Positions 5,138 through 39,944 of a stretch of DNA of 42,339 bases are shown piece by piece. The notes beneath the pieces are model-generated. The model was not told the DNA's origin and made no database searches. It worked only from the letters and a program-made list of their open reading frames with translations. The stretch is from an uncultured bacterium (GTDB lineage Bacteria > Fermentibacterota > Fermentibacteria > Fermentibacterales > JCC-6). Every line of letters begins with the position of its first letter. Position 1 is the stretch's first letter. Made by a program: the position numbers and the translations under genes. Where the stretch lies: the NCBI GenBank assembly GCA_964639605.1, contig CAZXEF010000002.1:1-42339 (forward strand). The letters run 5' to 3'.

Positions 5138-5566
5138 CTAATTATAATCTATTCCGGGACAGTCGGCAGAGCACAGCGGTTTACCCGGCACGGAAAGCAC
5201 TACGGCTTCCCTCACCGCATCCAGCAGATCCAGCAATCCGGTGTCAGGTATGAACTCGATATCCTCATGATCTGAAGGATCCGGGACCCAGGTATACTTG
5301 CGGAGTATTCCCTCGCTGACGCTGAAATGAACGGGCTTCAGACATCTGGCGCAGGGTGTGCTGAAGCTGGTGTCAAACCTTCCGATGCAGGTGACGGTTC
5401 CCTCTTCCAGGTCGACGGAGAGATGGAGGGTGCCTGTGTCGTCTGCAGGTTCAGCTTCATCCAGTGACCAGTCCACGCTTTTCATGGGAATCTCGAAAAT
5501 CCCGGTGTTCACCCCTCCGGACAGGCTCCTGAGGTCAAGGACAAGGGTTGAAGTGTCGAGGTTCAT
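5138..5566 (-). CDS. yceD: YceD/DUF177 family protein (large-subunit rRNA accumulation protein-like)
   Basis: 142 aa, acidic, with a CARCL..C metal-binding-like motif. Conserved position immediately upstream of rpmF. Confidence 0.8.
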   Translation of the reverse strand: MNLDTSTLVLDLRSLSGGVNTGIFEIPMKSVDWSLDEAEPADDTGTLHLSVDLEEGTVTCIGRFDTSFSTPCARCLKPVHFSVSEGILRKYTWVPDPSDHEDIEFIPDTGLLDLLDAVREAVVLSVPGKPLCSADCPGIDYN

Positions 5567-35005: not shown

Positions 35006-36279
35006 CAGGATCCTTCCTCTGCATCGGCAGTTGCTTCCGCTTCGTCATCCTCCACCAGCGTCCATTTCCATGACGCTTCGGGGTCCTCATGGTCACCGGT
35101 ATTGGATACTTCCTCCCCGGTCGGCTCCTTATCGGTAATATCGGCCCTTTCGAGAATTAGTTCCAGTGCCTTCCTGTTCCTGAGCCTGTCCATGATCGAA
35201 GATTCCGATTCCTCGGGGCTCTTTTCCTTCTCGATCTCCTCCGGCGTTACCTGGACGTTCTCTTTCTCCGCTACAGCCCTGAGAATGAGGAACTCCCTCA
35301 CTTTGTCCTGCGCAAGCTCCCTGGCGGCTTTGATGGTCCCCTCTCCGGGATCCTCTTCCCCGAGCCTGTTGAGATAGTCCCTTGTGAGGTTGTTGACCAT
35401 GTATACGGGAGGATCGAAGGGATTGCTCGCAAGCAGGCTTTCAGTAACTGTCCTCTCCTTCAGGTAGGTGACCTCCTGCTCGTAGCGGCTCTTCACGCTT
35501 TCCTCCACCTTGTCCCTCAGCTCCTTCAGGCTCGAAAGGCCCGCTGCCTTCTCGGCGAACGTGTCGTTCAGGTCGGGGAGCATCGGGCGCCTGACATCGG
35601 TGACCCTGAACCTGTGGACGGGATTCCCGTCACCCTCCGGGTCGGGACTCTCCATCCTCGCCGAGAAGGTATAACCCTGCTCAACTCCTGTAACCAGCCG
35701 GTCGAACCCCTCGCCGATGTGGGAATCACCTATCCTGACGCTGAATTCCTGCGGTTTTCCGCCTTTTTCCGCGGGAGCTGCCTCCAGCATGACCAGGTCC
35801 CCCTCCTGCGAGGGTCTGTCAACAGTCTCGAAGCTCATCAGCTTCTCCCTGAAGGACTCGAGCGTCTTCGCCACCGCGTCCTCGAGATCCAGCAGAGGCA
35901 CTTCGATGGCTATCCCGTCTGTGCCCTTGGGTTCAGGGGTCTCGAAGAGGGAGAATGTCATTTCGTAACTGTAGGGGTTGCCCTCCACCGGCAGCTCCAC
36001 TTCATCGTCGGCTTCAGTGTCATCAAGTATCCAGTCCTGATCCTCGATGAGCTTCGAGGTCAGGTCCTGCCTAATGGTATCCGCCACCTCGGCCTTGATG
36101 ATGTTGCCGTATTGCCTGTCTATAATGGACCTGGGCACCCTGCCCGGGCGGAAGCCCGGCATGTCCAGGTCCTTCGAGATCTGCTTCCTCACTTTTCCGA
36201 ACAGCCGGTCCACCCGCTCCACCGTCTCGGTGAACCTCACCTTCCTTGTATTTCCCTCTGACTTGACGATCTCATGCAT
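35005..36279 (-). CDS. tig: Trigger factor
   Basis: 424 aa. N-terminal ribosome-binding GFRPGRVP motif. Acidic C-terminal tail. Canonical tig-clpP-clpX order. Confidence 0.9.
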
Positions 36280-36308
36280 TTGAAATTCTTCCTGTCGTTC
36301 AAGATAAG

Positions 36309-36394
36309 TGGTGCGAGAGGGGGGACTTGAACCCCCACAAGCATAGCTTACCAGATCCTAAATCTGGCGCGTCTGCCAATTCCGCCACTCCCGC
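36309..36394 (-). tRNA. tRNA-Leu (anticodon UAG), CCA encoded
   Basis: Manual cloverleaf: acceptor GCGGGAG/CTCTCGC (one G-U); anticodon stem CCAGA/TCTGG with loop TT-TAG-GA; long variable arm with AAGC/GCTT stem; T-arm GGGGG-TTCAAGT-CCCCC; 3' ACCA. Confidence 0.9.
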
Positions 36395-36419
36395 AGAGCC
36401 ATTGTCATCGCAACCTGGG

Positions 36420-36448
36420 AATATGCTTTGAATCAGTATTTACGTCAA
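36420..36448 (-). promoter_or_regulatory. Candidate sigma70-type promoter for tRNA-Leu (and possibly tig-clpPX)
   Basis: The minus strand reads TTGACG, a 17-nt spacer, then CATATT. The -10 element ends about 25 nt before the mature tRNA 5' end. Motif match only, and this lineage's promoter consensus is unknown. Confidence 0.35.
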
Positions 36449-36466
36449 AGTGAAACCCGAAGGGGG

Positions 36467-36494
36467 TCTGCCGCCGGACAAAACCGGCGGCAGA
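36467..36494 (-). terminator. Strong GC-rich hairpin downstream of the cpoB repeat array (probable tol-pal operon terminator)
   Basis: tctgccgccgg-acaaaa-ccggcggcaga forms an 11-bp perfect stem. In the minus sense the loop is UUUUGU and the trailing sequence is CCCCCUUCGGGUUUCACUUU, which is only partly U-rich. Confidence 0.5.
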
Positions 36495-36520
36495 GGGTTC
36501 AATGACGGTTCAGAAAGATC

Positions 36521-36763
36521 AGTCCTGCAGTCCACGGACTAGTGCGGCCTTGGAAGCACTGGTCCTGCAGTTCACGGACTAGTGCGGCCCTGGAAGCACT
36601 GGTCCTGCAGTTCCCGGACTAGTGCGGCCCTGGAAGCACTAGTCCTGCAGTTCCCGGACCAGTGCGGCCCTGGAAGCACTGGTCCTGCAGTCACGGACTA
36701 GTGCGGCCTTGGAAGCACTAGTCCTGCAGTCACGGACTAGTGCGGCCCTGGAAGCACTAGTCC
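36521..36763 (-). repeat. Tandem array of six 39-40 bp units duplicating the 3' end of cpoB; each unit junction forms a 10-bp-stem hairpin
   Basis: Units start at 36521, 36561, 36601, 36641, 36681 and 36720. The progenitor copy starts at 36759 and is the true gene end. Consensus (plus strand): RGTCCTGCAGTTCCCGGACYAGTGCGGCCCTGGAAGCACT. Confidence 0.95.
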
Positions 36764-37431
36764 TGCAGTTCCCGGACCAGTGCGGCTTCATCACTTCCAG
36801 GGTACCTGTTCAGGAGCAGGTCGAAGAGCCTGTCCTTCTCCGCGTCGGCCCCGTGGGTGGCGTATATATCGGCAGCCCTGAACAGAGCTCCGGAAGCCCA
36901 CTCCGAACCGGGGTACATGTAGTACAGCGCCACCAGGTCCTCAATGGCGCGATGTGAATAACCGGCCTCCTCCCAGCAGATGGCCATGTAGTAGAGGGCG
37001 TCGTCCGCCAGGGACGAGGACGGGTGCCTGTCATGGAGTTCCAGGAAGCCCTGGGCGGCAATGTCGAAACTGCCCTGCTGGAACTGCCTGTAGGCCTCGT
37101 CGAAGAGAAGCTGGGCGCCGGGACCGGCCACGGTGTCCTGCACCGCTGTGGTTCCTGAGCTGTTGAGCCTCATCAGGGTCATGTCAAGCTCGTCCGCAAG
37201 TGCCGTGAGCCGCTCTATCAGGTCCGACGTCCTGCTGCCGGACTGGGCCTGGAGACCTCGAAGCAGCGTCTCGTTGGCTTCCATAGCCGCGGTCAGGTCC
37301 TGGATGTCGGCCTTCAACTCCTGCTGGTCCGTCTGGATGTTCTCGATCTCCTTCGGAGTATGGATCCAGAACCCCAGGCAGCCCGTGAGGAGGAGGAATG
37401 CGGTGACCGCTGCGATCGATAACCTGAGCAT
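36757..37431 (-). CDS. cpoB: Tol-Pal system protein CpoB/YbgF (coiled-coil plus TPR)
   Basis: 224 aa. Signal/lipobox LLLTGC, a Q/E-rich coiled coil, and C-terminal TPR-like repeats (..YRQFQQGSFDIAAQGF..HPSSSLADDALYYMAICW..YPGSEWASGALF..). Last gene of the canonical tolQRAB-pal-cpoB order. Confidence 0.8.
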   Translation of the reverse strand: MLRLSIAAVTAFLLLTGCLGFWIHTPKEIENIQTDQQELKADIQDLTAAMEANETLLRGLQAQSGSRTSDLIERLTALADELDMTLMRLNSSGTTAVQDTVAGPGAQLLFDEAYRQFQQGSFDIAAQGFLELHDRHPSSSLADDALYYMAICWEEAGYSHRAIEDLVALYYMYPGSEWASGALFRAADIYATHGADAEKDRLFDLLLNRYPGSDEAALVRELQD

Positions 37432-38011: not shown

Positions 38012-39190
38012 TCATCTGAATCCAAGGGGCGACCATGTCGGGCAGTAGCACTCTCCGCCCCCGGAAAGCTTTCTTACGTTCAGTCCGTTCAGTTCGATCA
38101 TATATATGCCCCGCCCGCCGTCCATGTCGCTGCTGAAGGCTATGTGTCTGCCGGTGGGACCCCAGACGGGATCCTCGTTGAGGGTGCCGTCGAACGTGAG
38201 CTGACGGATGTTGGAACCGTCAGCGTCCATCACGAAGATGTGGAAGTCCCCCCCTGTCATGGCGGTGTAGGCAATCCTGTCGCCGTCCGGCGACCAGGAG
38301 GGGCTGTCGCAGTACCCATGGGAACTCGTGACCCTCATGGCGGTCCCCCCTGAGCTGTCCATGACGTAGAGCTGGGGGTATCCGATCCTGTCGCTGGTGA
38401 AGACGATCTGCCTGCCTGTGGGGGAGAAGCTGGGAGAGGTCTCGATGGACTCCCTGAGGGTGAGCCTTGTGGTCTGCGAGGTTTCGGTGTTCAGGAGGTA
38501 TATGTCGGAGTTGCCGTCCCTGGAGAGAACCAGGGCCACCGTGGTCCCGTCGGGACTCCAGGCGGGGGACGAGTTCAGTCCGGGGATGCTGAGTATCTTC
38601 CCGGCCGAGGAAGTCGAGAAGCTGTAACTCCAGAGGTCGGCGTTACCGGACCTGTAGGAGGTGAACACTATCCTGTCGCCGTCCGGGGACCATGCTGGAG
38701 TGGTTATCACATCTCCGTCGAACATCACGGTCCTGGCAGGCCTCGGGTCCTGGGACTTCACGGCCAGCGCGTAGCCGTCACCGGTCCTTCTGATGTAGGC
38801 TATCCAGGTGGACGCGATGCCCTCTTCCCCCGTGAGATCGTATACCAGGTCATCGGCGAAGGCGTGGCAGAGGGAGTACAGGCTCTCCCCCGAGTAGTTC
38901 CTAGTCATCAGCGGTTCACCGCCCGAAGACACTCTGGCCCTGAGCTGGTACCCGTCGGGTGAGCTGCCCACTTCTATCTCGGCGCTTGCGTAGCCCTCGT
39001 CCGAAGTGATGAGCAGTCCCGAAAAATCTATGTCATCCCTTATCTGCTCGAAAGCCGTTTCCGACAGATCACGGTCACCTTCCACCGTAAGGGATACAGG
39101 AATGCATTCGGCCCCGATGGGGGTCATGGGAATGAAATCCGAGCCCCGCGCAGCTAATGCCAGAACAAGAATGAATGATAAGTATCTCAT
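38012..39190 (-). CDS. tolB: Tol-Pal system beta-propeller protein TolB
   Basis: 392 aa with a signal peptide. Repeated P(A/S)WSPDG propeller blades (PAWSPDGDRIVF, PAWSPDGTTVA, PSFSPTGRQIVF, PSWSPDGDRIAY, PVWGPTGRHIAF). Confidence 0.9.
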   Translation of the reverse strand: MRYLSFILVLALAARGSDFIPMTPIGAECIPVSLTVEGDRDLSETAFEQIRDDIDFSGLLITSDEGYASAEIEVGSSPDGYQLRARVSSGGEPLMTRNYSGESLYSLCHAFADDLVYDLTGEEGIASTWIAYIRRTGDGYALAVKSQDPRPARTVMFDGDVITTPAWSPDGDRIVFTSYRSGNADLWSYSFSTSSAGKILSIPGLNSSPAWSPDGTTVALVLSRDGNSDIYLLNTETSQTTRLTLRESIETSPSFSPTGRQIVFTSDRIGYPQLYVMDSSGGTAMRVTSSHGYCDSPSWSPDGDRIAYTAMTGGDFHIFVMDADGSNIRQLTFDGTLNEDPVWGPTGRHIAFSSDMDGGRGIYMIELNGLNVRKLSGGGECYCPTWSPLGFR

Positions 39191-39194
39191 GCCG

Positions 39195-39944
39195 TCACTC
39201 CGGTCCTAGGAATTCTATGTTGATGACCGCCGGGCTGGTCCTTCCAGGCGGCATAGGAGGTATCTGGGCCATGCTCAGCGCGTTCTCCACAGCCCTGTCG
39301 AAAGCAGAGGTCCCGCTTCTCCTGATGATTTCCACATCGGTGGACCCGTCGGGGTAGACCGTTAGCACGACCCTGTAGGACTGCTGAGGGCTAACCGAGG
39401 TCCTGTAGCCCCTCCTTACCGCGTTGAAGACCCTGGACTCGTAGGTGCCGGGTCCCGGGGCTCCCGCTCCTGCATCTCCCTGGGAGCTGACGGCGGCAAA
39501 GCCCTCCGCTGCAACCTGGACTTCCTCGGGGACCTCTTCGGGATGCTCCTCTATGACCTCCTGGGGAGTTTCCTCCGTGATTTCCTCGGGGACCTCTTCG
39601 GGGTTTTCCTCTGGAGTCTCCTCGGGATTCTCCTGGACCTCCTCTGGGATCGAGATCACCTCCTGCACTTCCTCGGGGATCTCCTGCACCTCTTCCTGGA
39701 TGACCGCCTCCTGGACCTCCTCGGGGACCGTCAATTCCTCCGTTACGACGTCCGAGGAAGCGGACAGGGTCACCATGTGGACCATCATTGCGTCATCTCC
39801 ACCGGTAAGGGTGCTGGCGCTGCTTGAGAATGTGATGGCTCCCACCAGAAGCAGTATCAGATGCCCGGCGCCCGCCAGGATGTAGTCCAGCCTGCGGGGC
39901 GAGTAATCCTTCCCCCGGAGGGGTTCACGATCATTGAAGCTCAA
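39195..39944 (-). CDS. tolA: TolA/TonB-like energy-transducing protein with acidic Pro/Glu repeat linker
   Basis: 249 aa. N-terminal TM anchor, a roughly 80-aa PEEVQE-type repeat region, and a C-terminal TonB_C-like fold (..YRVVLTVYPDGSTDVEIIRRSGTSAFDRAVENAL..). Sits in the TolA slot between tolR and tolB. Confidence 0.75.
   Translation of the reverse strand: MSFNDREPLRGKDYSPRRLDYILAGAGHLILLLVGAITFSSSASTLTGGDDAMMVHMVTLSASSDVVTEELTVPEEVQEAVIQEEVQEIPEEVQEVISIPEEVQENPEETPEENPEEVPEEITEETPQEVIEEHPEEVPEEVQVAAEGFAAVSSQGDAGAGAPGPGTYESRVFNAVRRGYRTSVSPQQSYRVVLTVYPDGSTDVEIIRRSGTSAFDRAVENALSMAQIPPMPPGRTSPAVINIEFLGPE
39522..39602 (-). repeat. Internal 60-bp-spaced duplication within the TolA-like linker coding region
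   Basis: The identical 21-mer ttcctcggggacctcttcggg occurs at 39522..39542 and 39582..39602. The surrounding sequence (about 39480-39730) is degenerate GAR/CCN repeat coding PEEV(Q/P)E. Confidence 0.7.

Follow-up and report, generated by a model that had tools for sequence, protein, structure and literature searches.

The cpoB-like gene and its 3' array

The DNA analyzed here is a 42,339-nt stretch (contig CAZXEF010000002.1, hereafter the window) from an uncultured bacterium of the Fermentibacterota, and this text concerns a tandem array that begins in the last codons of a YbgF/CpoB-like gene. The gene (positions 36757 to 37431) is an open reading frame (ORF) for a tetratricopeptide repeat (TPR) lipoprotein of 224 amino acids (aa) and closes a tolA-like/tolB/pal cluster. 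Gene, array and hairpin positions are on the minus strand unless stated otherwise. The protein scores 55.6 bits against TIGR02795 (tol_pal_ybgF; cutoff, 90.1), shows a weak match to NF008068 (CpoB) and matches TPR_6. Upstream of the gene lie, in order, genes for a TonB_2/TolA-like protein, a PD40 TolB and an OmpA-family Pal, as expected from tol-pal synteny, and several sources name its homologues "TolA-binding protein." YbgF/CpoB-like is a fair and safe label for the duplicated gene, called cpoB below.

The array, recovered by Tandem Repeats Finder (TRF), as a direct-repeat family and in a unit listing, covers positions 36521 to 36786 with 6.7 copies of a 39- to 40-nt unit. TRF reports a period of 40, 92% matches, a score of 441 and no indels at that period, and finds no other long-period noncoding array in the window. 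The first unit (U1; 36786-36747, 40 nt) consists of the final 27 nt of the gene (GCC GCA CTG GTC CGG GAA CTG CAG GAC), the stop codon TAG and the 10-nt TGCTTCCAGG. It is followed by U2 (36746-36708) and U3 (36707-36669), each 39 nt long with one A fewer, and by three 40-nt units: U4 (36668-36629), which is an exact copy of U1, U5 (36628-36589) and U6 (36588-36549). A partial terminal unit of 28 nt (36548-36521) ends the array. The initial annotation had given every unit its own TAG; this holds for three of the six units only, since the position homologous to the stop codon reads TAG in U1, U2 and U4, CAG in U3, U5 and U6, and TGA in the terminal partial unit.

A coding role for the array was rejected. 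The ORFs that run over it (two on the minus strand, of 40 and 51 aa, and one of 82 aa on the plus strand) are short, generated by the repeat and interrupted, and the period of 39 to 40 nt is not a multiple of three. The array is also an island of an otherwise avoided word. CTAG is roughly 10-fold rarer in the whole window than base composition predicts (15 observed, 156 expected), and 8 of these 15 occurrences fall in the 270-nt array. All eight ACTAGT (SpeI) sites of the window and 7 of its 31 CTGCAG sites lie at positions 36521 to 36790.

Inverted arms alternate along the array and pair in two registers

The pattern GGACYAGTGC-N10-GCACTRGTCC matches the window exactly six times, with linkers of 9 to 10 nt between the matches, and has no match in 100 shuffles. 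These are the six 30-nt hairpins of the initial annotation. Hairpin 1 (36734 to 36763; GGACUAGUGC-UUCCAGGGCC-GCACUAGUCC) has a perfect stem with a predicted energy of -16.0 kcal/mol in the mRNA sense, and its 5' arm contains the cpoB stop codon (TAG, 36757-36759), as had been described. The stems of hairpin 2 (36695 to 36724; 10 bp, -16.6 kcal/mol), hairpin 3 (36656 to 36685; -18.0 kcal/mol, with C-G replacing U-A) and hairpin 4 (36616 to 36645; -16.0 kcal/mol) are perfect as well. Hairpins 5 (36576 to 36605) and 6 (36536 to 36565) contain a C.A mismatch in the mRNA sense that reads G.U in the opposite sense, with energies of -11.4 versus -16.7 kcal/mol and -12.0 versus -16.7 kcal/mol, respectively. 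The pairing check therefore agrees with the annotated division into four perfect gene-proximal hairpins and two mismatched distal ones.

Each unit carries two inverted arms of 7 to 10 nt (GCACUNG / CN'AGUGC), and neighboring arms pair in either register. Along the whole array, 13 arms follow one another in alternating orientation at 20-nt spacing, separated in turn by two linkers, UUCCARGGCC and GKGAACUGCA. The second register, in which two arms enclose GkGaACTGCA inside one unit, is predicted to be equally stable, with -11 to -19 kcal/mol for both registers on both strands. Its first hairpin (36754 to 36783; -17.1 kcal/mol) joins the gene arm GCACUGGUCC across GGGAACUGCA to the stop-codon arm GGACUAGUGC. 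This within-unit register recurs in every unit and is the one chosen by a span-limited fold of the mRNA sense. Folding, proposed earlier as a check for the minus-sense RNA, shows that single hairpins are stable and that the unconstrained minimum-energy fold consists of long nested helices (z about -7.4 on the minus strand and -7.9 on the plus strand) instead of six hairpins.

The C-G pair of hairpin 3 had been presented as a compensatory change that hints at selection on pairing. Because U4 equals U1 exactly, duplication history explains this pair, and two of the three C-bearing arms in the window are mispaired. Taken alone, the window holds no evidence for selection on pairing.

The array derives from the end of the gene

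The C-terminus of the cpoB-like protein, SDEAALVRELQD (...YPxSDEAALVREL..), is kept in all 82 homologues, down to 42% identity. As far as sequence comparison can tell, this conservation shows that the gene end is ancestral and that the array was copied from it. The tandem duplication of the cpoB 3' end put forward in the initial annotation is thereby upheld, and the existence of array-less sister lineages and the character of the distal unit fit it too. The distal partial unit reads GCA CTA GTC CGT GGA CTG CAG GAC TGA and then passes into diverged sequence, as it does in L005, a Fermentibacteraceae metagenome-assembled genome (MAG). Since TGA is the stop codon used by the array-less sister lineages, this unit may well be what is left of the original end of the gene, together with the stop codon and untranslated region (UTR) that belonged to it.

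A further probable trace of the ancestral state lies within the gene. The Tyr-Pro-Gly-Ser codons contain CCCUGGAAG (36794 to 36802), which is complementary over 9 nt to CUUCCAGGG in the "loop" of every unit; the reverse-complement relation reported earlier between the loop and this gene segment is thus confirmed, with CTTCCAGGG at 36794-36802 matching the loop core. The CCCUGGAAG/CUUCCAGGG duplex has a predicted energy of -19.3 kcal/mol and a z score of -3.7 against shuffled UTRs. An analogous stem, AUCCUGAAAG / CUUUCAGGAU, pairs the Tyr-Pro-x-Ser codons with the short UTR in the array-less L053 (z = -3.7). The array-less L052 has one of the form CCGGAAG / CUUCCGG and the array-less L048 a weaker one, and no analogous codon-UTR stem was seen in more distant relatives. 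Probably, CCCUGGAAG once served as 5' arm in a long ancestral stem around the stop codon and the ~40 nt of the gene that precede it. The segment inside this stem, together with the 3' arm, corresponds roughly to the duplicated unit, which fits a replication slip at the hairpin foot. The first duplication may have arisen by such a slip, with the Tyr-Pro-x-Ser codons paired to the 3' UTR. A literature search for tandem duplications of a gene 3' end that include the stop codon returned nothing relevant.

Arrays occur in one clade of Candidatus Aegiribacteria

The locus was compared across 33 metagenome loci retrieved with a protein profile, the contigs of the nine closest protein clusters and one GTDB genome. 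The homologues stem from Candidatus Aegiribacteria / Fermentibacteria MAGs; the Candidatus Aegiribacteria lineage was first described from Mahoney Lake (PMC4846661). Arrays are found in protein clusters P0001, P0002, P0004 and P0007 and in L005, which is 92% identical to the window over 5.4 kb. Unit length differs between lineages: 48 nt in P0004 (L042, L043 and L044; 79% aa identity), 46 nt in P0007 (L050 and L051; Candidatus Aegiribacteria MLS_C) and 41 nt in P0002 (L040; 89% aa identity), where the array lacks a stem. TRF periods in the relatives are 39, 46 and 48. Among the loci examined, no array was found in P0005, P0006, P0008 or P0009 or in any relative at or below 75% identity.

In a neighbor-joining tree, the proteins with an array group in a single clade, to which those without one are sister. 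All arrays also have in common the junction ...GCTTC-N4-6-(A/G)GCC/GCAC (the slash marks the boundary). The common junction and the monophyly favor a single origin of the array in the ancestor of one Aegiribacteria clade, and independent origins in each lineage would be less parsimonious on the same grounds. Four-fold degenerate sites are only 39 to 47% identical among the array lineages, which is near saturation, so the clade is old at the synonymous level. Within each lineage, the units match the lineage's own gene end, synonymous sites included. Judged from this match, the pattern is one of concerted evolution by unequal exchange, in which the selected coding copy is the anchor.

In L040, synteny breaks exactly at the array: positions 734 to 1019 are A+T-richer DNA past the array, and an opposite-strand gene replaces tRNA-Leu and tig.

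Copy number differs between assemblies of near-identical DNA

The window has 6.7 copies, and L001 and L007, whose CpoB protein is identical to that of the window, have 2.7, with flanks that are 99.3 to 99.8% identical at the nucleotide level. Similarly, L050 has 4 copies and L051 has 2 (flanks, 99.95 to 100% identical), and L042 has at least 4 (4.0 up to a contig end inside the array) compared with 1.4 in L043 (flanks, 100% identical). L040, the one lineage without a stem, has the minimum copy number, about 1.7. The differences between near-identical assemblies are in keeping with the earlier suggestion of a hypervariable variable-number tandem repeat (VNTR), and the copy number is apparently unstable, or at least not reliably assembled. 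L001 equals the window without U3 to U6 (159 nt), and its junction falls in the segment common to the U2/U3 and U6/U7 boundaries, a pattern that is expected equally from a real unequal crossover and from an assembler shortcut.

The same observations raise the question of an assembly artifact, that is, of an array that is absent from the genome or was mis-expanded by a short-read assembler. Copy number varies among assemblies of nearly the same DNA, and four contigs stop in or at the array: inside it for L005, L008/L044 (in the second unit of L044) and L042, and 13 nt past the stop codon, apparently within a unit, for L041 (P0003). Moreover, identity between the units of MLS_C extends over more than 90 nt, so the copy number there cannot be trusted. 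However, at least two tandem copies occur independently in assemblies from JGI, ENA (MEGAHIT k141), NCBI (MAGs) and the GTDB representatives, which differ in sample and species. The longest exact repeat inside the window array is 54 nt, and its 6.7-copy layout is therefore resolvable in principle by ordinary 150-nt reads or large k-mers. The units in addition hold a mosaic of variants, which is untypical of graph loops. An artifact is thus scarcely credible. Because independent samples, assemblers and species all show the array, its existence is secure; its exact length is not. Exact-protein look-ups with the trigger factor and Pal of the window, made in search of more array-crossing contigs, found nothing on record. 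The contig of L043 starts a short way upstream of the gene, and in this clade assemblies made with several assemblers break repeatedly at the locus.

Pairing of the arms is partly conserved across lineages

The window, L005, the P0004 lineage and MLS_C all have the stem CNAGUGC / GCACUN'G, and L041 has a matching arm. One position of the stem varies: the third base of a Leu codon (CUN) pairs there with a base downstream of the stop codon. The window has U-A or C-G at this position, L005 has U.G, L042 has C-G and MLS_C has G-C. When 11 distinct junction hairpins, drawn from about four independent lineages, were aligned, 85.5% of the cells paired, compared with 78.6% in shuffles (2 of 500 shuffles reach the observed value), and the covariation score was 0.213, compared with 0.128 in shuffles (reached by 4 of 500); slid controls were 20 to 44% paired. 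This cross-lineage covariation is suggestive of stem maintenance. Several findings speak against a strict requirement for the hairpin. L040, whose CpoB protein is the closest to that of the window, is stemless and has the minimum copy number, and the window itself shows distal hairpins in decay. The lineages also differ in the sequence of the loop, in how long the unit is and in where the stop codon falls relative to the stem.

This variation bears on two functional proposals made in the initial annotation. In the first, burial of the stop codon in a stem would control translation termination or stop-codon accessibility, and the window TAG is indeed part of a stem in either register, on the 5' side in hairpin 1 and on the 3' side in the within-unit hairpin. 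In MLS_C, however, the stop codon (TGA) lies outside the stem, 4 nt upstream of the arm; in the P0004 lineage (L042), TAG sits in a 7-nt bulge; and L040 has no stem. In-frame read-through would add only nine residues before a TGA. Such control is most improbable.

The second proposal is a multi-site platform for an RNA- or DNA-binding protein. In the DNA form considered here, 13 palindromic GsACTAGTsC sites at 20-bp spacing would bind a dimeric protein of the partition, nucleoid-associated or repressor type or serve as an upstream element of the tRNA-Leu promoter. The 20-nt phasing of the 13 arms, their self-palindromic ACTAGT cores, the confinement of all eight window ACTAGT sites to the array in DNA some 10-fold depleted of CTAG, and the 73 nt that separate the array end from a conserved promoter would all suit this proposal. 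The palindromic core and the 20-bp "site" periodicity are nevertheless limited to the window/L005 lineage: the arms are GCACTCG/CGAGTGC in MLS_C and GCACTGG/CCAGTGC in L042, both nonpalindromic, and the periods of 46 to 48 nt entail another spacing. Since the palindromic core is lineage specific and the inverted-repeat relation is kept, the conserved property appears to be intrastrand pairing and not a dimeric protein site. The window contains no further copy of the site except chance matches with one mismatch, and we regard a DNA platform as very unlikely. A tentative operator-like reading of GNACTAGTNC, modeled on Trp-repressor-type sites, was set aside because the arms of the relatives are nonpalindromic.

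The array lies between cpoB and a conserved putative tRNA-Leu promoter

Between the array and the next promoter, an inverted repeat at positions 36467 to 36494 forms a perfect, G+C-rich hairpin of 11 bp with a 6-nt loop (UCUGCCGCCGG / CCGGCGGCAGA). The stem is kept in L005 (about 5295-5325) with a different loop (UUUUGU versus CUCUCU). This hairpin is terminator-like and a candidate for the tol-pal terminator, lacks a canonical U tract and was not called in the terminator scan. A sigma-70-type promoter-like site, TTGACG-17 nt-CATATT (36420 to 36448; one found versus 0.2 expected), begins 73 nt downstream of the array end. The motif TTTGACG-N16-17-GCATATT recurs just upstream of tRNA-Leu in nearly all relatives (L009-L022, L043, L045, L048, L050, L052 and L053), and the site is the putative promoter of tRNA-Leu and probably of tig-clpP. 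The tRNA-Leu gene itself (anticodon TAG; 36309 to 36394) was called by ARAGORN and by Rfam RF00005 (56.7 bits) and is followed by genes for trigger factor (tig) and ClpP; the order cpoB - tRNA-Leu - tig holds in nearly all relatives. Its location between the stop codon and the conserved promoter makes the array the predicted 3' UTR of the tol-pal-cpoB unit.

A transcript from the other strand was also considered, namely, an antisense small RNA whose hairpin loops would offer GGA and so sequester a protein, in the manner of CsrB/RsmZ. All six hairpins pair in the plus sense, two of them via G.U, and each loop (GGCCYUGGAAGC) contains GGA. On the other hand, positions 36200 to 37000 hold no plus-strand promoter-like site or terminator, and Rfam gave no match to such an RNA. 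Of the plus-sense loops, those of the window and of MLS_C contain GGA, but those of L042 (GGCTTACAGAAGC) and L005 (GGCCTTCGAAGC) do not, and GGAAG is the complement of a CUUCC inherited from the ancestral 3' arm. A sponge is accordingly extremely unlikely.

Three observations concern the neighboring genes. Compared with the near-identical L010, L019 has an A+T-rich insertion of ~190 nt (~690-870) between tRNA-Leu and tig, possibly a small mobile element or what remains of an integration at the tRNA. The TonB_2/TolA-like ORF (39195-39944, minus strand) contains in-frame degenerate repeats at 39518-39730 with periods of 12, 24, 36, 51 and 60; they encode a PEEV/EEVQE-rich linker, and the block stands at the same place in every relative, with differing size. 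In its longest form, the Pal ORF starts with GTG, encodes 205 aa and shares 40 nt (38012-38051) with the end of tolB. Pal is annotated with 180 aa in the relatives, and its true start is probably further downstream.

The unit is confined to one locus in the DNA examined

In the window and the fetched loci (389 kb), the generalized motif NAGTGC-N8-13-GCACTN was found at this locus only. TRF over all loci returned only the cpoB-end arrays and the in-frame TolA-like repeats, plus an unrelated 21-nt repeat of 7.3 copies with 97% matches (AGGCTGGGGACTGGAGAATGG) at positions 462 to 614 of L026, ~4.4 kb upstream of cpoB in a distant relative. A collection of genomes from 185,579 species contains the exact 30-nt pattern at five loci. 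The sole related one is L005, whose single match is at the same locus; the other four are lone perfect palindromes in unrelated taxa, close to the chance number by our own estimate. Viral contigs scanned for the unit gave no matches, and in Rfam nothing but the tRNA and noise (such as miRNA and snoRNA models) came up, whether at the gathering or at a permissive threshold. By its distribution in the window, the fetched loci and this collection, the unit is not dispersed and is not a repetitive extragenic palindrome (REP) or bacterial interspersed mosaic element (BIME), and the dispersed REP-like family considered in the initial annotation is not supported.

A locus-specific minisatellite with a probable 3'-UTR effect

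With moderate confidence, we interpret the array as a minisatellite (VNTR) that is specific to this locus, prone to form hairpins and copied from the 3' end of cpoB; in the 3' UTR, it probably has a generic REP-like effect. After the first duplication, further copies would have arisen via hairpin-stimulated slippage and unequal crossing-over; hairpin-driven expansion fits the minimal copy number of the stemless L040. The complementarity of the arms may be kept by template switching between them, by weak selection or by both. Template switching can create and maintain hairpins without selection and can produce apparent compensatory changes in one step (PMC8794818, PMC7202029).

The array would be transcribed as the 3' UTR of the tol-pal-cpoB operon, upstream of the 11-bp terminator-like hairpin. 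Its string of hairpins (-11 to -18 kcal/mol) could then form a redundant roadblock to 3'-to-5' exonucleases, as in E. coli REP/BIME, and could also brake read-through into the tRNA-Leu/tig/clpP unit. REP hairpins in 3' UTRs are mRNA stabilizers and partial terminators (bioRxiv 10.64898/2026.03.23.713779). By this analogy, a barrier or stabilizer at the RNA level is the most likely effect of the array and a plausible one. The covariation of the stem across lineages lends the exonuclease barrier some support, and template switching gives the same pattern without selection (PMC8794818). The interpretation implies no dedicated partner protein and no new mechanism.

Several points weigh against it. 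The barrier effect is argued from analogy, and all copy-number differences come from short-read assemblies, some of which may have collapsed copies. No canonical minus-strand terminator is present at positions 36200 to 37000, and the array hairpins lack U tracts. There is no strand preference, with three C.A mismatches in the mRNA sense and one in the opposite sense. Sister lineages live without an array, some with only ~20 nt from the cpoB stop codon to the promoter. A purely neutral reading, for its part, has to contend with the persistence of the array in every sampled lineage of a clade near synonymous saturation, with the covariation of the stem and with the conservation of the noncoding core AGTGCTTC.

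The last three points also speak for a selected, clade-specific cis-regulatory RNA module whose copy number would tune its strength. Three Watson-Crick pairs occupy the same stem position across lineages, and in the P0004 lineage (L043) the array is the sole source of hairpins from cpoB to the promoter. Candidate jobs for such a module are setting the half-life of the tol-pal/cpoB mRNA, insulation from the tRNA-Leu-tig-clpP promoter (possibly involving Rho) and release of a stable 3'-UTR-derived RNA. On the opposite side stand the loss of the stem in L040 and the decaying distal hairpins of the window, the unconserved loop and stop position, the equal folding of both registers and strands, the array-less sister clades and a covariation that template switching can explain without selection (PMC8794818). 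We consider a selected module possible and, on the whole, doubtful.

A related and more speculative idea, which we hold to be rather unlikely, is a self-renewing "endogenous BIME." Here the coding copy would be the master from which unequal crossing-over regenerates the hairpins, and copy number would tune the stability of the tol-pal-cpoB mRNA and its insulation from the tRNA-Leu-tig-clpP unit, or a stable multi-hairpin 3'-UTR RNA would be released. If true, this would be REP-like regulation that needs no mobile element or transposase. A specific selected function of the array is thus a tentative possibility, and the minisatellite reading is the one retained here.

Even as a VNTR only, the array would offer a strain-typing marker for uncultured Candidatus Aegiribacteria (Fermentibacterota), and where cpoB meets tRNA-Leu it demonstrably causes contigs to break and copy numbers to be wrong in metagenome assemblies. 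It is a natural example of BIME-like alternating hairpins that were built from the 3' end of the adjacent gene and not by a mobile element, and it shows coevolution with the coding copy of its origin. Should the hairpins prove to be under selection, they would show that a lineage can evolve REP-like 3'-UTR regulation on the spot, and the natural alleles (about 1.4 to 6.7 copies) would form a test set for the relation of hairpin number to decay or read-through.

Comparison with known repeat and hairpin systems

REP palindromes carry a conserved GTAG or CGTC tetranucleotide at their foot (PMC3733652, PMC3333891), and in E. coli BIME-2, palindromes follow one another in tandem with alternating orientation. 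The BIME-2 copies at one locus are well conserved, and their number differs among strains (PMC3333891). The cpoB array resembles BIME-2 in architecture only, with alternating arms, two short linker types, head-to-tail order and a 3'-UTR or intergenic position. Its copy number, too, differs, between assemblies of near-identical DNA. It is unlike BIME-2 in occupying one locus in the DNA examined instead of hundreds of dispersed ones, and its arms measure 7 to 10 nt, compared with 20 to 40 nt in REPs. The unit GCCGCACTRGTCCGKGAACTGCAGGACYAGTGCTTCCARG has no GTAG/CTAC or CGTC/GACG tag and was copied from the 3' end of the adjacent gene rather than imported.

Mycobacterial interspersed repetitive units (MIRU-VNTR), attributed to work by Supply et al. 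in 1997 and 2000, are a dispersed family with about 40 loci; their short ORFs reportedly overlap the stop and start codons on either side and are thereby coupled to the neighboring genes. Like them, the cpoB array consists of head-to-tail units of 40 to 50 nt beside a stop codon in an operon or intergenic region, with copy numbers that differ between assemblies of close relatives. In contrast to MIRU, it is private to one gene end, has a period that is not a multiple of three, follows no ORF logic and has built-in inverted arms.

The G+C-rich stems right after the gene, and the ancestral long stem around the gene end, recall 3' stabilizing stem-loops and terminators. Unlike intrinsic terminators, the stems of the array lack a U tract, being followed by GUGACUGCA or GGGAACUGCA, and the structure is iterated six times. 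Template-switch hairpins (PMC8794818, PMC7202029) offer a further parallel, in that complementarity is restored with other base pairs in each lineage and both arms can change at once. Those hairpins are single, whereas here template switching would act within a tandem array that is also homogenized by unequal crossing-over. In its structure, then, the array is not a MIRU, an intrinsic terminator or a CsrB-type RNA, and what it matches is the definition of a minisatellite (VNTR).

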